Origin: a virus
Taxonomy: Duplodnaviria; Caudoviricetes
Virus record (IMG/VR): IMGVR_UViG_3300030376_005812
Coordinates: 1-50,046 of that record
Length of the DNA stretch: 50,046 bases
Direction: 5' to 3' (one strand)
Part shown: positions 30,349 through 47,260 of the stretch, in pieces
How positions within the stretch are numbered: position 1 is the stretch's first letter
Layout: every line of letters starts with the position of its first letter
Position numbers and translations under genes: made by a program
Notes under the pieces: generated by a model
Told to the model about the DNA's origin: nothing
Seen by the model: only the letters and a program-made list of their open reading frames with translations
Database searches by the model: none

Positions 30349-30592
30349 TGGAATTCAGCTTCCTATATCCTTCGGGCATTTCCTCAAATAAGTCTATGCC
30401 TCGTAAGTTGATGGATTCACCCACCTCTACCGGGGTGGGGTCTATGTCTACTGCCTCATGACCTTCGTGTACTGTAGACGAAGGCACCACAGAATAAAAG
30501 TGTTGTACCAAAGTTCTGTAGTATTCAAAAGGGATCGTCACATAGCGGGGGTCAGACTTTTGATCCTGAATCGGTTCCTGATTGTCTTGCAT
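30338..30592 (-). CDS. Hypothetical protein between TerL and portal
   Basis: 84-aa ORF overlapping both neighbours. Confidence 0.65.
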   Translation of the reverse strand: MQDNQEPIQDQKSDPRYVTIPFEYYRTLVQHFYSVVPSSTVHEGHEAVDIDPTPVEVGESINLRGIDLFEEMPEGYRKLNSNGD

Positions 30593-32495
30593 TGAATAGC
30601 TCCGACACTTGTTCTGGGGTCAGTTTTGAAGGATCCAAGGACTCTACGTAGTTCAGTCCTGAATTGGGATCGACTGTGATTCCTTTGCGGATCTGCTCCC
30701 AAGGATCCACAGGGTCATCAAGTTTCTTGGTGGCGTACTGTCGGCCCTTGACGATGAACATCGACATGGAAACGGTGTCAAGGACATCGTCGTGCTGGAG
30801 CCCCCCACTGGGTGCGTCTGGGTTGAACTCGTCGATCTGGTTGAAAAGCATGGACCACGGGCTGTCGTACCGTCTTCGAAGGGGCATCTTGATCAAGCCA
30901 TGCTCAAACCTGAATCCGAGGGCGTTGATCTTGGAAGTCTTGTCCATCTGGCCCACCCTAAGGGGTACGATCCTCGGAAGCTCCTGAACACCGGCCATCT
31001 CCACAGCTCTCTGCTTCACGATTGACTGCATCGTGTTGTAAAGAGAGACAGACTGAGATACGACCTCGGGGTGGATGGACTTGCACCCCCACCGCTGTGC
31101 CATCTGGAATGCTTTGGTAATCAAGACCGACTCTCGGGTCTGCCCCGCCCAACAATCCAACACGAAAAGAGAAGCTTCAACAAGATCGTACCCCATCAGG
31201 GTTGCCACCTTGTAGTCGGAATCCTTGGTGCTGGTGTAGGAAGTGTCGCAGGTAATGAAGGTTCGGACTCGATTCCTCAGGAAGTTGGCAAGGCTTTCGG
31301 AGTTCTTGTTGCCGTCCTTGTCATGCCAACACATGAGGGTCTTGCTGTTGATGGGATCTTCACCGTCAGGCTCTTCAGTCCACCAACCATGCTTTGTTTC
31401 TTCGAGGGTTCCGAAGTGCTGGTCCTCTGCCTGACCCGGTTCGGCCATGTACTCGGCAGCGTAGTTTGCAGATCCGATGAGTCGCTTGATCTGCTCAAGG
31501 GAAACAGCATCTTTCAGTCGATCGTCTTTTGCCTTGTCGGAGTCAGTAAGAGGCCACATAACAGGCCAACAAGAATGACGATCTCCGTCTTCGTCTCGAT
31601 ACTCCGCTTTGAGTACAAGACGGCTCCACTCGTCAAAACGAGGGTCCCTAGAACGATGCCCAGAGGCAGTTTCTTCAGTATCCATCGCGTGCCACGCATA
31701 GTGCCTCCTTGACACAAAAGTAGCCAGCCACCTAACGCTGGTGTCTCTTCGGGTCACCATGGGCATGACCACCTTGAAGAGAAGCTGTTCCATGTAAGAA
31801 CGAAGCAACGAGAGAGATGTTCCGGCCCTACCGTCGTATTCAGGGTCATCAAGAAGATAACACTGAGGACGACCACCACGCTGTCTCGACTCTGCAGAAA
31901 GACTTCTGAACCAAGATCCATTATCAAGGTACATCAGCTCGATACCGAATGACTTTTCACCACGTTTGGGCGTAATGCGGCCACCCGGAGATTCGGGAGC
32001 AAAGTCGTCATAGATCCTGCTGTTGTCCGTGAACTGCGTCTTCAGTATCTGTGCAGTCTGGGCTGCATTGTCATGAGACGATGTTGCGTAAATGAAAGAG
32101 TACCCCGGCCTCGAAAGCATTTGCAGCAGTGCAGACTTGCGAATGCAGTTGCTCTTTGCGAAACCACGGGGAGCAACCACGATCGCTCGACGCGACAGAG
32201 CCCACAACCTGTAGATGGCAAAGTGTCCTAGCGGCGGCTCCAGTGGAGTATCGTCGTAGAACATGGGATAGAACTCTGCTTCATCGTCAGGGTACAGATA
32301 GTACGTATCGAAGAACTGCACAGCTGACGCAAAGGCCGTTGCTTTCCTTTGCGGGTCGTTGTGCTGCACCATCCACTGACGACATGCGTTCACCCGAGAC
32401 AGTCGTTGCCCTTCGGGTGTCAGCTCAAGATAGTCGGGGGGAAGAGGGTAAAGAGGATTACCCTGATCCTTCATCGGAACTGGTGCAACCTTCAC
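30552..32495 (-). CDS. terL: Terminase large subunit
   Basis: Walker A APRGFAKS, Walker B YLLDDPE, RNase H-like nuclease FITCDTS..DSDY and HDDVLD. Confidence 0.92.
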   Translation of the reverse strand: MKVAPVPMKDQGNPLYPLPPDYLELTPEGQRLSRVNACRQWMVQHNDPQRKATAFASAVQFFDTYYLYPDDEAEFYPMFYDDTPLEPPLGHFAIYRLWALSRRAIVVAPRGFAKSNCIRKSALLQMLSRPGYSFIYATSSHDNAAQTAQILKTQFTDNSRIYDDFAPESPGGRITPKRGEKSFGIELMYLDNGSWFRSLSAESRQRGGRPQCYLLDDPEYDGRAGTSLSLLRSYMEQLLFKVVMPMVTRRDTSVRWLATFVSRRHYAWHAMDTEETASGHRSRDPRFDEWSRLVLKAEYRDEDGDRHSCWPVMWPLTDSDKAKDDRLKDAVSLEQIKRLIGSANYAAEYMAEPGQAEDQHFGTLEETKHGWWTEEPDGEDPINSKTLMCWHDKDGNKNSESLANFLRNRVRTFITCDTSYTSTKDSDYKVATLMGYDLVEASLFVLDCWAGQTRESVLITKAFQMAQRWGCKSIHPEVVSQSVSLYNTMQSIVKQRAVEMAGVQELPRIVPLRVGQMDKTSKINALGFRFEHGLIKMPLRRRYDSPWSMLFNQIDEFNPDAPSGGLQHDDVLDTVSMSMFIVKGRQYATKKLDDPVDPWEQIRKGITVDPNSGLNYVESLDPSKLTPEQVSELFNARQSGTDSGSKV

Positions 32496-35409: not shown

Positions 35410-36837
35410 ATGAACTGGAACAATAACCCGTTGGAATCACTAGAGCCTATCAAAGTTGGTAGGCGAGTACTTCGTGATTATTTCACAGGATCGTCAGGAC
35501 ATCAAGGTTTGTATCGGTGGAGGGGAGAGTTTTGGCACTGGGACGGTCAACAGTGGGAGATTCTTCGTGAAGACAAGATCCGTGAGCGGGTACTGCTCAT
35601 CTTGGAAGATGCGGTTTGGGAACAATTTACCGCAAACGGTCCTGTCATCAGACGCTATGCCCCCGACAAAAACAAGATCGAGGGTGTCGTCAATGCTTTG
35701 GAAGCTCTATGTCGGCTAGACAAGGAAGAGGTTCCTTGTTGGATCATACCACAGGAACAACATATTGATCCAGCACATTGTATTGCGTTCCAAGATCACA
35801 TCATCGACATCAAAAACAGCACTTCTGAGTCTTGGGTAATGAAAGACAGAGACCAGCGATGGTTTGATACGTCGGTTATTCCGTGTGGGATTGATCCTGA
35901 TGCTGAGTGTCCTCGTTGGGAAAAGGCATTGCACGAATGGGGCAACGGAGATCCTGAGTGGGGTCGTTTGCTGCAGCGTTGGTTTGGGTATTGTTTGATG
36001 GGCACGCGCAAGTATGCGAAGTGGCTGTTGATGTACGGCAAGATCCGTGGTGGCAAGGGCACAATCTGCAGTGTGTTGAAGCAGTTGACCGGCCCGACCA
36101 CTTATCTGAGTACGTCGCTGGAGGATCTGGCAAACGAGTTTGGGCTGGACGGTTTGGAACTGAGCAAGGTGCTGAGTATCAGCGAGGTTTCAGAGATTGA
36201 CAGCAAGTCAGGGGAAAGGGTTTGTCGGATACTCAAGAACATCGTGGGCCGTGACCCCATGACTGTGAATGTGAAGTACCGAAGGCAGCTCAGAAACGTG
36301 ACTGTTGGGGCTGCGCCGCTGATGCAGTCCAACGAGATCCCAGTTCTGCCCAACAAGGGCCGTGGATTGTCCGGCAAGATGTTGGTTCTGCCTTTTGATG
36401 TCAGCTTTGAAGGTCGTGAAGACTTTGAGCTGGATGCGGATTTGAAGAAGGAGATCCCCGGCATTGCAGCATGGGCTGTTCGTGGTGCGATTGAGCTTGA
36501 GGGGTCTGATCGGGACAACAAGTGGCCTGTTCCTGAGGCGGGCAAGAACGCGATCCGTCTATATCACCTGCAGAACAACCCCTTCGACAGCTTCTTGGAG
36601 GCTCGGTTCATCAGGAACGAGAGTGGGTTTACTGCCAATGAGATTGTCAGGAGTCAGTGGGAAAGTTGGCTGCGGGCAAACAAAGTCAAGATGCACGTCC
36701 CCCGCAACATGCTGATCCAGCGGATTGCTCAGGACTGTTCATGGGATCTGAGGCAGACAAGGCTGTCCCAAAATGAGGGACATCACCGTGGTGTTGCTGG
36801 CATGACCTTGAAGAGGGAGTATGATGACGAGCATTGA
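35410..36837 (+). CDS. D5/P4-type superfamily 3 helicase lacking a primase domain
   Basis: D5_N-like FWHWDGQQW, CPRWEKAL..LQRWFGYCL, Walker A GKIRGGKGT, Walker B ISEV, LKNIVGRD..VNVKY and motif C QSNEIP. Confidence 0.88.
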   Translation: MNWNNNPLESLEPIKVGRRVLRDYFTGSSGHQGLYRWRGEFWHWDGQQWEILREDKIRERVLLILEDAVWEQFTANGPVIRRYAPDKNKIEGVVNALEALCRLDKEEVPCWIIPQEQHIDPAHCIAFQDHIIDIKNSTSESWVMKDRDQRWFDTSVIPCGIDPDAECPRWEKALHEWGNGDPEWGRLLQRWFGYCLMGTRKYAKWLLMYGKIRGGKGTICSVLKQLTGPTTYLSTSLEDLANEFGLDGLELSKVLSISEVSEIDSKSGERVCRILKNIVGRDPMTVNVKYRRQLRNVTVGAAPLMQSNEIPVLPNKGRGLSGKMLVLPFDVSFEGREDFELDADLKKEIPGIAAWAVRGAIELEGSDRDNKWPVPEAGKNAIRLYHLQNNPFDSFLEARFIRNESGFTANEIVRSQWESWLRANKVKMHVPRNMLIQRIAQDCSWDLRQTRLSQNEGHHRGVAGMTLKREYDDEH

Positions 36838-39005: not shown

Positions 39006-39482
39006 ATGACTTTGATCCTCAATCGTACTCAGTTCATCGACGTGGACGCTCCCGTGTCCGCAGGTGGCTATGCCTGTGACATCTCCAACGTCACTGCATC
39101 CAAGCCCGGTGAGCCTCTCTCCATCACCATCGTCTGCAATGTCGTTGATGATGGCATCAACAAGCAGGTTCTTGATCGCCTCAACTTCGAGCATCCCAAG
39201 AACGCAGTCCGTGACATCGCCAAGCAGAAGGTTGTTGCATACCTCAATGCAACTGACCAGAGTGACAAGCTCGCTGACTTCAGCAAGTTCATGCTTGGTC
39301 AGGGTGGATTCGACTTCAGCTGCCTGATCGGTGGTCAGTGCTGGATCCACGTCATCGAGTCCGGTGAGTGGCGCAACGTGGACATCAAGGAGAAGCCCCG
39401 TGCTCTCGCCAAGGGTGAGACCTTCAAGGCCGCTGCACCTCACGACTCCACCAAGAAGCCCAACCTCACAGTCAAGCGTTGA
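39006..39482 (+). CDS. DUF669-like (SSB-like) protein
   Basis: PVSAGGYACDISNV..K..LSITIVCNVVD..VLDRLNF..AVRDIAKQKV..LIGGQCWIHV pattern. Confidence 0.65.
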   Translation: MTLILNRTQFIDVDAPVSAGGYACDISNVTASKPGEPLSITIVCNVVDDGINKQVLDRLNFEHPKNAVRDIAKQKVVAYLNATDQSDKLADFSKFMLGQGGFDFSCLIGGQCWIHVIESGEWRNVDIKEKPRALAKGETFKAAAPHDSTKKPNLTVKR

Positions 39483-42843: not shown

Positions 42844-43590
42844 ATGTCGTACATGAAGAGAGTTTACGAAGACAAACTCAACATACATCTAGATCAGTTT
42901 CCTTCTCGACCAGACTGCACCATGTGTGAGCTGCACGAAGAAGCAACCAATCCCGGTGTGCCCACTGTATGGTGGCACGAGTCAAGGGATCCATTCGAAG
43001 ATGTACCCATCCTCATCGTGCTCGGTATGAATCCGGGTTACCAAGAGGACAAGAAAAACCAACCATTCATCGGACCCTCAGGCCAGCTGCTCAAGGGTCC
43101 TTACCTCAAGGGATCAAAGCTCAATGAAGTTGCCTGCGTATACTTTGCAAACGCTGCTCGATGTTGGACCCCAAGTGCAAGTCCCCCCCGTCGAAAGCAT
43201 TTCAAGTCTTGTTTCGAACACACTATTGTGGACGCAAACAACATCGTCCGTGCTCGACGAGATGCAAAAGTTGCTTGGCTGTGTTGTGGAGCAGCAGCAG
43301 TTGACTCCCTCTCATCAGCCTTACTGCCCTCCCGAATCAATCTGTCGGGATCTTTCAAAGCTCAGTCGTTGCCTTTTGATCTTGTCGGACGTGATGCTGA
43401 GGGTCAGCTCGAAGCAGCCGGAAGGCAGTGCAATCTCTTTGCCACTTACCATCCCGCTGCAGTCCTTCGAAATCCTAACCTCATCCATGCCGTCGCAGAC
43501 CACCTCGCCCTCCTCCACTCCTACCTCGAAGGAACCATCCCAGTCCCAAGCAAGCCTACCTTGGTACCGCCAAGAGCCCCAGAATCCTAA
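42844..43590 (+). CDS. Uracil-DNA glycosylase family 4-like protein (SPO1 polymerase-associated type)
   Basis: CTMC, GMNPG..ED..PFIGPSGQLL, NAARC, KSC and TYHPAAVLR; four Fe-S cysteines are retained. Confidence 0.85.
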   Translation: MSYMKRVYEDKLNIHLDQFPSRPDCTMCELHEEATNPGVPTVWWHESRDPFEDVPILIVLGMNPGYQEDKKNQPFIGPSGQLLKGPYLKGSKLNEVACVYFANAARCWTPSASPPRRKHFKSCFEHTIVDANNIVRARRDAKVAWLCCGAAAVDSLSSALLPSRINLSGSFKAQSLPFDLVGRDAEGQLEAAGRQCNLFATYHPAAVLRNPNLIHAVADHLALLHSYLEGTIPVPSKPTLVPPRAPES

Positions 43591-43618
43591 GCACGTTCTA
43601 CCTCAAGAGGAGTAGAAG

Positions 43619-46099
43619 ATGACAAGCCCAAGGGTAATCTCACTCGACATCGAATCGTATGGCGCGTGCCATGCCAACAGTGAAGGCAAGCTTCTGCCCG
43701 AACAGAAGCTGTTCAATCCCTTGAGGTCCATGCACACTGACGGTGTGACAAGAGATGATCTTGTTCTTACTGTCGCAATTACCCTGCCGGAGTACGACCC
43801 CCGATGCAACTCTTCCTTCCCGGATTCGAAGACTACGATCACGAACTCGACATCGACTTCCAAGACCAAGTTAGTGACAGACTCGAACAGATCGCAGACT
43901 TCCTCATGTCAAGAGCAAACCAAACAGGACTCAGTCCCTTGGAGCTGCTCTACACTAGCGGCATTATCACCCGCGACGAGCATGGTCTTCCAGATGTCAG
44001 TCGAATCCCACCGGACCCTCTTGAGGAAGTGGCTCCAACACTCAAATACCATCCTTGGGATGAACCTACAGTTTGACATCCAGTACCTTCGCCAGCTTCC
44101 AGACTTCAGGTTTGTCCTTGATGGCCGACAAACTCTCATCGACCTTTCGGTCGTCAACTACATCCACAACGAGCTGCGCCCAGAGAAGTCACTCAAGTCT
44201 CTGGGTCCGGTTCTTGGCACCCACACCTACGAGCAAACAATAAAAGACGGTCGCTTCAAGAGCCCTAAAGACGCAGAGATTATTTCCTACAACGCGCAAG
44301 ACACTCACAATACAATGTTGTGTGTCTCTGAGCTTGCCAAAAGAATCTTGAAAGATCAGCCATGCCCGACCAACACCCAGTCCATCTCTTCGATAGAGAC
44401 ATTACCTTCTCCCTCAACTTCAACGGAGAGAGTTTCCGACTCAGAGCCAAGGACCTCAAGCAGTGCTTCAAGGAAGTCTTCGCTCACCCTCAGCTCTGGG
44501 CCAAGCCCATCGGTGGAGACCACACAATCTTCGACGAGTTGCCTGCCACCTCCATCGACATCAGCAAGTTCACTCTCAACTTCATCGCACTCGCAGCTTG
44601 CACCGTGTCCGAAAACCTTGATGAAGAGTTTAGCCGAGACGAAAGAGAGTAAGCTCTCCCCCCAAAGTATCGAGCATTACTCCGACACCATCTGGTCATG
44701 TATCACCATGTCAGAGTCGGGTATCCCCATGTCCTTTGACCTACTCAACAAGCAGCTAAAGAACCTGACTTTCAAGTGTGAGATTGCAGCGCGAGTATCC
44801 AAGAGCAAGTACAATCTTGTGCTCGAAGGAAAAGGCTCAGCCAAGTCAAAGCAGGAGTTCATTGACGAGATCATCGAAGAGATCGACAGTCACTCCTCCA
44901 TCGACATCCTCAGCCACCCCCTGCTTTCCCTTACTCCCAAGACGAAAAAGATCTCATGGTCCGAGGACAATCGCAATCTACTCTCATCCTACCTGCCGAA
45001 GGATCATCGACTGCAGTCTGCTATCAGGGTAGTGAAGTACCATGCTTCAGCACAGAAGTTGATCTCGACCTACCTGTACCCCCTGCTGAAACACAGGAGG
45101 AACAGACCACAGGACAAGTCATCGGTACTTATTCCGTTCTCGAAGGAGATTGGTTTAGCTCACCCGACGTGGTACATAGTTCCATCCCTGCCCAAGGACA
45201 CAGGATCGGAAGGCGGGACGATACAAGGCCGTATCACCTGCAAGAGTCCATCAGCTCAGACCTTTCCTCCCCCCATCAAGAAGGCGATGAAGTCCCGTTG
45301 GACTAACGGTTCGATCATTGGCTTCGACTTGTCACAGATCGAGCTTCGTGTTGCTGCCCTGTTGTCAGGTGATGACAAGCTGATCCAATCATTCACCGAG
45401 GGTCTCGACCTACACACCGACAGAACGGTGTCAGTCTTTGGCGAAGACATTCAGTCCGACCCCCAGTTCAAATCCAAGTGGCGACAGATCGGCAAGACCC
45501 TGAACTTTGCCGACCTCTTCTTGGCATCAGCCTCACGTATGCAGCGCACCGTTGTCGAAATGTGTGGCGACCTTATGCCCATTCCTTTCTTCAACAACAT
45601 CGTCAAGACCCGATACCTCCAACGACCCGGCCTCTGCTCTTGGCAGTACGAACTTGCCTGTGTTGCAGAGACCCAAGGCACCCTCGTACTTCCGATAACC
45701 GGACAGTCCCGCACCTTTACCAGCTTCGAAGTTGACCACACCAAGTGGGATCGCAATCGAATCGTGGCTCCTGTCTACAACAAGAACTTCAAGTCACTGC
45801 TCAATGAAGTAGTAAACTTCCCCATTCAGACGACAGCTGGCAATGTTCTTCTTCAAATCCAGCACAACTTAAATAGAATGATGGGGTCAATGAACCGCGT
45901 AGGCAGACGGCCCCTTATGTTCCTTCAGGTTTATGACGCGGTATACTTCGACTGTCCCACGGAGCAGGTCTCTGACCTTGAGGAAATGATTTCGAATGCT
46001 GTCGATCTGGTGGTTCATGGTGGTGGTTATTGGAATCAGCTGCAGCAGATCTTTCAGCGCACTGTCCCAGTGCTGTACGAAGTCGAGCAGGTCTCTTGA
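43619..46099 (+). CDS. polA: DNA polymerase family A (3'-5' exonuclease and polymerase domains, no 5'-3' exonuclease)
   Basis: ExoI LDIES, ExoII NLQFD, ExoIII YNAQD; TIQGRITCKSP, motif A DLSQIELR, motif B RQIGKTLNF, NFPIQ and motif C QVYDA. Confidence 0.92.
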   Translation: MTSPRVISLDIESYGACHANSEGKLLPEQKLFNPLRSMHTDGVTRDDLVLTVAITLPEYDPRCNSSFPDSKTTITNSTSTSKTKLVTDSNRSQTSSCQEQTKQDSVPWSCSTLAALSPATSMVFQMSVESHRTLLRKWLQHSNTILGMNLQFDIQYLRQLPDFRFVLDGRQTLIDLSVVNYIHNELRPEKSLKSLGPVLGTHTYEQTIKDGRFKSPKDAEIISYNAQDTHNTMLCVSELAKRILKDQPCPTNTQSISSIETLPSPSTSTERVSDSEPRTSSSASRKSSLTLSSGPSPSVETTQSSTSCLPPPSTSASSLSTSSHSQLAPCPKTLMKSLAETKESKLSPQSIEHYSDTIWSCITMSESGIPMSFDLLNKQLKNLTFKCEIAARVSKSKYNLVLEGKGSAKSKQEFIDEIIEEIDSHSSIDILSHPLLSLTPKTKKISWSEDNRNLLSSYLPKDHRLQSAIRVVKYHASAQKLISTYLYPLLKHRRNRPQDKSSVLIPFSKEIGLAHPTWYIVPSLPKDTGSEGGTIQGRITCKSPSAQTFPPPIKKAMKSRWTNGSIIGFDLSQIELRVAALLSGDDKLIQSFTEGLDLHTDRTVSVFGEDIQSDPQFKSKWRQIGKTLNFADLFLASASRMQRTVVEMCGDLMPIPFFNNIVKTRYLQRPGLCSWQYELACVAETQGTLVLPITGQSRTFTSFEVDHTKWDRNRIVAPVYNKNFKSLLNEVVNFPIQTTAGNVLLQIQHNLNRMMGSMNRVGRRPLMFLQVYDAVYFDCPTEQVSDLEEMISNAVDLVVHGGGYWNQLQQIFQRTVPVLYEVEQVS
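43804..44076 (+). CDS. Candidate nested gene 1 inside polA (90 aa, acidic)
   Basis: ATG-to-TGA ORF in an alternate frame; GGAG 11 nt upstream; begins where the polymerase turns Ser/Thr-rich. Confidence 0.55.
   Translation: MQLFLPGFEDYDHELDIDFQDQVSDRLEQIADFLMSRANQTGLSPLELLYTSGIITRDEHGLPDVSRIPPDPLEEVAPTLKYHPWDEPTV
44362..44652 (+). CDS. Candidate nested gene 2 inside polA (96 aa)
   Basis: ATG-to-TAA ORF in an alternate frame that matches the Ser/Thr linker end to end; GAAAGA upstream as for genes at 39006 and 40010. Confidence 0.65.
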   Translation: MPDQHPVHLFDRDITFSLNFNGESFRLRAKDLKQCFKEVFAHPQLWAKPIGGDHTIFDELPATSIDISKFTLNFIALAACTVSENLDEEFSRDERE

Positions 46100-46124
46100 C
46101 AAGTAAATTGTGGCTACCTAGTTT
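46096..46124 (+). promoter_or_regulatory. Sigma70-type promoter, probably leaderless
   Basis: TTGACA-N17-TAGTTT, then 6 nt to ATG 46131; no SD present. Confidence 0.65.
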
Positions 46125-46130
46125 GGCCGC

Positions 46131-46652
46131 ATGAAGAAAGAAATCACCATCGTGGTAGATGACAGGGAGAAGAAACCCCTAGCCTTCCCCTCCACAATCG
46201 TCTTCCTTGACCCAAGTAAGATGCCCACCCACAAGAAGCAGACAACCATCCGCATCCACACGGAGAAGGCCCGCCTCACCACTGCCGACTACCTCCTCAA
46301 AGGTGACCCCACCGTGGGGGGAATAGAACGCAAGGGTTCCATCAGCGAGATAGCCCAGAACTGCCTCACCAACGATGGCCGCCGCAAGTTCGTGGACTGC
46401 CTCAAGCGACTCAGGGACGAGTTTAGTAAGCCCTACCTCCTGTTCGAGGGGGACATACACAAGATCCAGTCAGCCAAGATCCACATCCCCGGACCTCCCT
46501 TCAATCCGGGGATAGCTGTTGACTCTTTGATGCGGCTTACTTTAGAATACAACGTACCTATCTACCTCATGCCTTGCTCGACCATTGCTCAACGGAGAGC
46601 CACAGGTGAGTGGGCTGCGCGACTCCTTATCAACACCGCCCTAATGGACTAA
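46131..46652 (+). CDS. ERCC4/XPF-domain nuclease (putative junction resolvase)
   Basis: IVVDDREK, LTTADY, IERKGSISE and YLLFEG motifs. Confidence 0.85.
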   Translation: MKKEITIVVDDREKKPLAFPSTIVFLDPSKMPTHKKQTTIRIHTEKARLTTADYLLKGDPTVGGIERKGSISEIAQNCLTNDGRRKFVDCLKRLRDEFSKPYLLFEGDIHKIQSAKIHIPGPPFNPGIAVDSLMRLTLEYNVPIYLMPCSTIAQRRATGEWAARLLINTALMD

Positions 46653-46657
46653 TCGAC

Positions 46658-47260
46658 ATGGCAGCCGTACTCAACTCAACTGTTATCACCCCCAAGGTCA
46701 TGAAGACAATGGCTGGCGGCAACAAGACCAGCGAAGTCTTCACCCTCAACACTGAAATTCAAACCGCGAGTGCTTCGGGTTGGGCCACCCCAGCTGCAGA
46801 CGGCACCGCATTTCAGGTCGTGTCTGATGGCTGGTCCAGACTTGCAGTTTGGACCGTACACGAAGTTGGCGGAACCAGTGATGCTTCTGCTAAGTACTCT
46901 GTAATTGGTCAGCGGCCTTTTGTATCTAGTCAAATCAAAACAGCAGCCACAGGTGATGCTGATGCTGGTTTTGATGCAGATGATTTTTGGCTTCCCTGCC
47001 CTGTAAAGGGAGATGTTAGTGTTGAAATGATTTCTGCTGCCCGACCAGTTTCAACAGGTGGCGTGATCAGCAATGGTGCTGACGTAAACACAGGGACGTT
47101 TCCAGCCATTGCACAAATAGGTATCGCAACTGGGGGGACTAATGTGTATGCCCTTCCCAGCGTGGTTGTGGATTGTTCTGGAACCCTGAAGATTTCAGCT
47201 TACGTTCACACCGGAGCTGGGGTTGAGGGTGGTGTTATCCTTGGTCAGTTCATTGCGTAA
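46658..47260 (+). CDS. Beta-rich hypothetical protein, possibly virion-associated
   Basis: Ala/Gly/Thr/Val-rich, about 200 aa. Confidence 0.6.
   Translation: MAAVLNSTVITPKVMKTMAGGNKTSEVFTLNTEIQTASASGWATPAADGTAFQVVSDGWSRLAVWTVHEVGGTSDASAKYSVIGQRPFVSSQIKTAATGDADAGFDADDFWLPCPVKGDVSVEMISAARPVSTGGVISNGADVNTGTFPAIAQIGIATGGTNVYALPSVVVDCSGTLKISAYVHTGAGVEGGVILGQFIA

Follow-up and report, generated by a model that had tools for sequence, protein, structure and literature searches.

A probable nested gene coincides with a clade-specific linker insert in a marine phage family A DNA polymerase gene

Introduction

Small genes embedded out of frame in a larger gene are known from phages, such as Rz1, which lies in Rz of lambda, and gene E of phiX174, which lies within gene D. 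To our knowledge, textbooks present genes that are wholly embedded out of frame as rarities in tailed phages, and annotation pipelines discard them. Here, we analyze the virus record IMGVR_UViG_3300030376_005812 (Duplodnaviria; Caudoviricetes), which is of marine origin and is used whole as the window (50,046 bases; complete or nearly so, with a CheckV estimate of 98% completeness). Its gene for a family A DNA polymerase (PolA; 43619..46099, + strand) contains a 96-codon open reading frame (ORF) in another frame (nested ORF 2; 44362..44652, +), which coincides with a segment of PolA that is restricted to one clade and which we consider likely to be a real gene under selection.

Like Rz1 in Rz and E in D, nested ORF 2 would be a complete small gene located wholly inside a larger phage gene, with its own start and with both frames maintained. 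Unlike in those two cases, however, the host encodes a replicative polymerase rather than a lysis or scaffold protein, the embedded gene matches an insert that is confined to one lineage and that reads in the host frame as a tether of disordered, low-complexity sequence, selection acts mainly on the embedded frame, and the host gene contains two such genes.

Polymerase genes take part in overlaps elsewhere. In hepatitis B virus (HBV), PreS overlaps the polymerase spacer in particular, and this spacer is disordered. According to two papers, P overlaps the S gene over its whole length, and the spacer has been viewed as a tether that is dispensable (PMC9093120, PMC3618453). Our locus resembles HBV in that the overlap involves a polymerase gene. 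Yet HBV has a mostly overlapping 3.2-kb genome under extreme size pressure, whereas the present case concerns a 50-kb tailed phage without such pressure, an orphan 96-residue partner protein, and a tether that is found only in the clade with the nested gene. The thioredoxin-binding domain of T7 gp5 offers a further parallel, being a lineage-specific insert at a permissive surface or linker position of a phage PolA (PMC10201439). Inserts of that type are ordered domains in the polymerase frame, whereas here the polymerase-frame reading is predicted to be disordered and the information to lie in the other frame; none of the words "disordered," "low complexity," and "linker" appears in that paper. 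Extra coding DNA at a defined site of a phage DNA polymerase gene, present in some lineages only, is also a feature of inteins and of homing endonuclease genes that are carried by introns. In contrast to these, nested ORF 2 is out of frame and lacks a Hint or endonuclease match in Pfam as well as a ribozyme match in Rfam, and the host frame remains open, so that PolA does not depend on removal of the insert.

The kind of element that we describe, an out-of-frame embedded gene, is already known. New are the phage replicative PolA as its host, the exact coincidence with a clade-specific insert, the clear asymmetry of selection between the frames, and the presence of several such genes in one gene family. 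In our full-text literature searches, we found no account of genes nested within PolA inserts, although supplementary files may contain more.

Results and Discussion

A clade-specific insert between the exonuclease and polymerase domains of PolA

The PolA gene encodes 826 residues with a 3'-5' exonuclease and a polymerase domain, as judged from the ORF and from Pfam, in which DNA_pol_A (PF00476) matches residues 430-795 (E 3.3e-24; 86 bits vs. a cut-off of 34.3). A total of 360 PolA homologues were obtained at E<=0.001, and the motifs LDIE, NLQFD, and YNAQD, which we take to be Exo I-III, are invariant or near-invariant in the PolA alignment. AlphaFold2 modeled the protein from a 20-row alignment with a predicted local distance difference test (pLDDT) score of 76.6 and a predicted template modeling (pTM) score of 0.75. 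In the phage collection, no close relative of this PolA was found, the best match showing 27.7% identity over 33-44% of the query.

The alignment, flanking sequence anchors, and the AlphaFold2 model together delimit a segment of ~95 codons between the two domains, designated insert 2 (PolA residues 248-344; 44360..44650, +). In the PolA frame, it reads as a Ser/Thr/Pro/Ala-rich stretch of 97 residues (PCPTNT...ETKES), of which 45 (46%) are Ser or Thr and 61 are Ser, Thr, Pro, or Ala. Conserved PolA sequence, KLSP..HYSDTIW..MSE.GIP, restarts immediately 3' of it.

Half of the aligned PolAs (10 of 20; the window and P0002-P0010, with 59-69% identity) contain insert 2, and in the remaining 10, RI..D(F/Y/W)P joins T(D/S)KL directly. 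We also measured the distance from DTHNT to HYSDTIW in 51 DNA sequences from viral and metagenome contigs that carry both flanking anchors, and found 115-120 residues in 16 of them (the window plus 15 loci) and 27-28 residues in the other 35. In a maximum-likelihood tree, the 10 insert-bearing PolAs form one clade with 97/98 support, and a single change accounts for the distribution. Collectively, these comparisons indicate that insert 2 was gained once and is specific to one clade of marine phage PolAs.

Nested ORF 2 fills the insert and is open in all insert-bearing sequences

Nested ORF 2 is wholly inside 43619..46099 and occupies the +2 (i.e., -1) frame of PolA. Its ATG (44362..44364, +) is enclosed by the codons CCA TGC, so that PolA reads it as the end of Pro248 and the start of Cys249, the first residues of insert 2. 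The nested TAA (44650..44652, +) marks the 3' boundary of the insert and spans the PolA codons AGT AAG (Ser344-Lys345), AGT encoding the last insert residue. On the 5' side, the nested frame is closed by a TGA located 10 codons before the ATG (44329..44331, +). The original prediction, made from the window alone, had stated that the ORF coincides with the exonuclease-polymerase linker, that a segment of roughly 97 residues with about 45% Ser+Thr is bounded by the nested ATG and TAA, and that normal thumb-region sequence resumes thereafter; all of this agrees with our data, except that we leave the label "thumb" aside.

Contigs assembled from runs of different studies of marine metagenomes, X2 (44198-45145) and X3 (44069-44784), show 0 differences from the window, and since contigs from independent runs are identical, the nested-ORF stretch is not an assembly artefact. 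The pieces of a further run, X7, equal those of X2 in size and may be the same data. In addition, reads of 4 DNA runs placed on the stretch revealed no variants within the insert and no joints.

The 16 insert-bearing DNA sequences represent 9 distinct DNA versions and encode 8 distinct nested proteins. In all 16, the nested frame is open, with ATG at its start and a stop at its end; the start is ATG in each of the 9 versions, and the +2-frame stop lies at, or just 5' of, the conserved (S/D)KL motif in every variant. The +1 frame, by comparison, is full of stops across the insert. At the protein level, all 10 insert-bearing PolAs have Cys at the insert start (EC, PC, QC, or IC), and the nested proteins share M1, L32, W46, F57, P61, I65, F70, and A76 across lineages. 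Length differences among the variants preserve both frames. We further assessed whether homologous proteins could be encoded in the +2 frame of individual PolAs. The P0005 PolA can accommodate all 96 residues of P0124 in this way, and the P0006 PolA all 105 residues of P0125, whereas P0122 fits P0001 over 81 of 96 residues only and P0123 fits P0008/P0009 over 28 of 91 only. The partial fits are taken as strain differences between cluster representatives rather than as contradictions.

An open frame within a low-complexity segment could be a by-product of composition, in which case there would be no gene, the ORF would mirror the xCN codons of a Ser/Thr/Pro-rich linker, and the ATG would be there by chance. 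Indeed, xCN codons by themselves cannot form stops in the +2 frame. However, when we shuffled the PolA codons of insert 2 (5000 shuffles for each of 7 variants), the +2 frame stayed open in 0.2-1.2% only. Because these shuffles so rarely leave it open, composition does not account for the open nested frame.

Selection on the two frames

The two frames are offset such that nested codon position 3 corresponds to PolA codon position 2. We tallied the changes in three independent close pairs (the window and L036, L003 and L039, and L004 and L041) and obtained 14, 7, and 31 at nested positions 1, 2, and 3 (chi-square p = 1.5e-4 vs. equal numbers). By PolA codon position, the same pairs show 8, 32, and 19 changes in the insert vs. 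12, 14, and 97 in the polymerase core (p = 4e-10). If only small polar residues were required of the linker, PolA position 2 would be conserved, and a composition by-product likewise predicts that this position is the least variable; it is in fact the most variable, which argues against both.

Rates of nonsynonymous relative to synonymous substitution (dN/dS; Nei-Gojobori) gave a concordant picture. Within insert 2, the nested frame has a dN/dS of 0-0.39, compared with 0.54-1.42 for the PolA frame, and the nested value is the lower one in 6 of 6 close pairs. The polymerase core displays the reverse, with 0.02-0.11 in the PolA frame and 1.3-5.7 in the +2 frame. Only one PolA residue, Gly294, is invariant in insert 2, and by the frame offset, it would lie at the place of the invariant nested Trp46. 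Moreover, C is enriched at nested position 3 (52 of 96 codons, vs. 166 of 460 at position 3 of the PolA core; Fisher p = 0.0012), and because of this enrichment, PolA reads mostly xCx codons, which specify Ser, Thr, Pro, or Ala and never stops.

As judged from these substitution patterns, purifying selection acts on the nested frame rather than on the tether, and the region of insert 2 appears to be dual-coding, with the information in the nested frame and a harmless tether in the PolA frame. The PolA frame would merely have to remain open and harmless over the insert, and the choice of C at nested third positions would achieve this by giving PolA xCx codons that are incapable of forming stops.

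The two readings of the insert are predicted to differ in structure

AlphaFold2 predicts a folded alpha/beta protein for nested ORF 2 (pLDDT 72.7, pTM 0.58), in which four strands (residues 15-20, 23-28, 47-49, and 63-65) are accompanied by one helix (29-40) and by a second, long one (67-95). In the PolA model, by contrast, residues 249-333, which cover most of insert 2, have pLDDT < 50 (about 27) and no secondary structure, so that the same DNA is predicted to yield disorder in the PolA frame. Both predictions are as the original prediction had anticipated. The nested protein has an acidic C-terminal tail in all lineages.

An alternative is that insert 2 is removed, either as an intron with an intron-borne ORF or by translational bypassing, leaving a PolA without the Ser/Thr-rich tether. 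Introns are frequent in phage DNA polymerase genes (in the phage collection, the annotation of SPO1 gene 31 includes an exon junction), and insert 2 is placed cleanly between conserved flanks. However, the PolA frame is open over insert 2 in all 10 insert-bearing PolAs and in 16 of 16 DNA sequences, which nested-codon shuffles predict by chance with a probability of 0.02-0.37 per variant, and every length difference between variants keeps both frames. That C is enriched at nested position 3 is in keeping with selection on a PolA reading of the insert. In addition, Rfam families, among them group I and II introns, gave no match to 43000-46500 even at E <= 10, and ORF 2 fills the entire insert, which leaves no room for a ribozyme core. 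We therefore regard removal as very improbable. An intein was also considered and rejected, as Pfam on the whole PolA returned DNA_pol_A only (E <= 0.1) and the in-frame reading is of low complexity with pLDDT ~27.

Initiation at the nested ATG

With the insert retained, ribosomes that start at 43619 would read through it and produce the full-length polymerase, its domains joined by a disordered Ser/Thr/Pro/Ala tether of ~95 residues that PolA presumably tolerates. Ribosomes that start at the conserved ATG at 44362 would produce a 96-residue protein composed of a beta-hairpin, a helix, two short strands, a long C-terminal helix, and an acidic tail. The conservation of the nested ATG points to such internal initiation.

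It had been proposed that GAAAGA, which lies 5' of the nested ATG at 44350-44355 and also 5' of the ATGs at 39006 and 40010, marks these starts. The hexamer is indeed present at the three sites. It is missing 5' of the nested ATG in the other three lineages, precedes just one start (39006) among the 38 listed, and occurs 23 and 19 times on the two strands of the window vs. ~12 expected per strand; it is not the usual ribosome-binding signal of this genome. AGGA is found within 16 nucleotides 5' of the nested ATG in 3 of 4 lineages. A second proposal, that the polymerase domain could be translated separately from the PolA-frame ATG at 44621..44623 (+; Met335), gained no support, because the remaining 9 PolAs with the insert do not conserve this residue.

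A product of the nested frame could also arise by a programmed -1 frameshift from PolA, in the manner of dnaX, which would fuse the exonuclease domain to the nested sequence and yield no free 96-residue protein. Relative to PolA, the nested frame is shifted by -1, its stop lies at the domain boundary, and the ribosome-binding context of the internal ATG is weak in the window. Nevertheless, a stop closes the nested frame shortly before the ATG, at a distance of 10 codons in the window and of 2 codons in the L003 lineage. By eye, no X XXY YYZ heptamer lies between stop and ATG in the window (the lineage examined for it), and in L003, only two codons separate them. Given the stop at 2-10 codons and the lack of a slippery heptamer in the window, together with an ATG that is conserved in all lineages, we consider frameshifting highly unlikely and favor internal initiation.

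Family and possible function of the nested protein

A profile search of 1.84 billion representatives returned 6 matches, and five of them are proteins of 91-105 residues that belong to the nested ORF 2 family. The sixth, P0126 (1274 residues), is a repeat protein by its sequence and was dropped as spurious. As far as could be checked, all homologues of nested ORF 2 are themselves nested in PolA. A search for free-standing copies in viral contigs found 3 loci, all at the PolA-nested site, and a search in prokaryote genome contigs gave 57 pattern matches, with 0 confirmed. In the genome of the window itself, a search for a second copy had 1 match, nested ORF 2.

Searches against known families and folds gave the following results. 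Pfam returned 0 families at E <= 0.1 for the nested ORF 2 and ORF 1 proteins (nested ORF 1 is described below), and among the 7 members of the nested-protein alignment, the best PHROG match had E 0.025, in 1 of the 7. Foldseek gave 0 matches at E <= 0.001 against each of PDB and BFVD. VIA-align against 48,161 chains reached a best Z of 5.3, which is under the level that the tool calls common, and the ESM Atlas yielded fungal DUF clusters only, with 141-157 shared features vs. 170 expected of true relatives. The nested ORF 2 protein is hence an orphan without a usable family or fold match; the sequence and structure searches suggested earlier delivered homologues (five clusters of 91-105 residues) and no match in Pfam, PHROG, or the fold collections.

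We speculate that the nested protein might be an accessory of replication or of host take-over that is made together with the polymerase, which would make it a candidate new partner of the phage replisome. Its acidic tail is only a lead, toward a protein-binding or DNA-mimicking role. A complex prediction for PolA with the nested protein scored 0.00, which is no evidence either way.

Weighing the evidence for a nested gene

Several observations weigh against nested ORF 2 being a gene. Long open stretches in the +2 frame also occur over the conserved polymerase core, one of 146 codons (~44867-45304, PolA residues 417-562) and one of 119 codons (~45377-45733, PolA residues 587-705), and openness alone is weak evidence for this reason. 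These stretches are open in several relatives too, but their translations are Arg/Pro/Gln-rich and junk-like and dN/dS for the +2 frame exceeds 1; codon bias combined with strong protein conservation has probably produced them as a by-product. Next, no Shine-Dalgarno core (AGGA or GGAG) lies within 25 nucleotides of the nested ATG in the window, and no internal promoter stood above chance, the counts from promoter and terminator scans being at shuffle level. None of the RNA runs screened contained the stretch, a result that bears on expression in neither direction. The selection signal is uneven, as the pair L039-L048 has flat changes (7, 6, and 6) and a modest dN/dS contrast (0.39 vs. 0.54), and deep pairs are saturated, with dN/dS alike in both frames (0.56-0.85 in a host-guided alignment). 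The nested-frame checks left out the P0007 and P0010 lineages, which are represented by proteins without DNA. The AlphaFold2 model of the nested protein is built on a 7-row alignment and has no residue at pLDDT >= 90. Finally, the function proposed above is a guess, since no family, fold, or functional match was obtained.

The core stretches and the poor upstream context of the window ATG are what one would expect if nested ORF 2 were a by-product of composition. This alternative nonetheless leaves the rarity of open frames among the shuffles, the excess of changes at PolA position 2, the nested dN/dS of 0-0.39, the ATG retained in 9 of 9 DNA versions, and the predicted fold of the nested protein without explanation; it is strongly disfavoured and, in our estimation, very improbable. 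Taking all of this into account, we put the probability that nested ORF 2 is a real, selected nested gene at roughly 0.8.

Sibling nested ORFs and the origin of the nested gene

PolA harbors a second ORF of this type upstream. Nested ORF 1 (43804..44076, +; 90 codons) is likewise in the +2 frame and fills another Ser/Thr-rich insert, insert 1, which separates the Exo I and Exo II motifs. Among close relatives compared pairwise, changes in nested ORF 1 at PolA positions 1, 2, and 3 number 0, 4, 0; 0, 3, 0; 0, 3, 0; and 0, 6, 2, and PolA residues 66-103 within insert 1 have pLDDT < 50 and no secondary structure in the AlphaFold2 model. A GGAG precedes the ATG of nested ORF 1, ending 11 nucleotides away. 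By these comparisons, nested ORF 1 appears to carry the same signature as nested ORF 2.

A third insert site is found inside the polymerase domain of the related PolAs L088 and L091. It is Ser/Thr/Pro-rich, with a Ser+Thr+Pro+Ala fraction of ~0.6 in the host frame, and contains protein-like +2-frame ORFs (L088:1912-2196; L091:1398-1697, the latter reaching the contig end). In both, AAGGAG is located 12-13 nucleotides 5' of the first ATG. The L088 and L091 ORFs have no detectable homology to each other, and when nested ORF 1 and the L088 ORF were each used as query in a word-indexed search, only the query's own cluster came back. By eye, the L088 and L091 ORFs resemble nested ORF 2, but we rejected the idea that the three form one mobile family, given hhalign probabilities of 0.4% and 0.1% and a BLASTP E of 0.036 over 22 residues.

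The recurrence of nested +2-frame ORFs with unrelated sequences in PolAs fits a repeated capture of small genes, whose C-ending codons would read as a tether, and also fits a repeated de novo birth inside tethers coded by xCN. As no free-standing homologue was found, a gene that arrived with the insert and one that arose inside it are not distinguishable. Of the original prediction that a small gene was inserted at a domain boundary, the gene and its place at the boundary are borne out, as is the gain of the insert in a single clade; the gene may have been inserted or may have arisen inside.

We tentatively raise the possibility, to which we give less than even odds, that the Ser/Thr/Pro/Ala tethers of these phage polymerases are both "shadows" and cradles of genes rather than linkers with chance ORFs, that nested ORF 2, nested ORF 1, and the L088 and L091 ORFs were each born de novo in PolA, and that genes are repeatedly born in this way in tailed phages and systematically missed by gene callers. 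Under such a scenario, a tether coded by xCN would free the first two bases of each +2-frame codon and could not create a stop, and the +2 frame would sample protein space almost without burdening the host protein.

Whichever origin applies, an essential replication gene would hold two embedded genes, each with a clean evolutionary signature, with further candidates at a third site in related polymerases. The coding trick would be simple: codons that end in C in one frame specify Ser, Thr, Pro, or Ala in the next, so that a folded protein and a harmless tether can share the same DNA. It would follow that many viral "low-complexity linkers" deserve to be re-read in other frames, that phage gene counts are too low, and that the many natural variants of this system allow capture and de novo birth to be tested against each other.

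Genome context and neighboring genes

PHROG matches at E <= 1e-5 were obtained for 2 of the 10 largest window proteins scanned, the other 8 being without one. The two are a large terminase subunit (30552..32495, - strand) and a primase-helicase (35410..36837, +).

PolA has a neighboring gene on either side. A gene of the uracil-DNA glycosylase superfamily (Pfam UDG, E 8.6e-13) is located at 42844..43590, and a 163-codon ORF (43124..43615, +) overlaps it in a different frame, with a matching open stretch in L001 and L002. The gene at 46131..46652 has a weak ERCC4-nuclease match (E 0.0021; 18.4 bits vs. a Pfam cut-off of 24). In the relative L003, three tandem ORFs whose products all end in ..GQFI. 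lie 3' of the nuclease-like gene (L003:3497-5490), vs. a single ORF with this ending in the window (46610..47260). Judging by the shared ending, the triple ORF of L003 looks like a tandem gene expansion in that relative.

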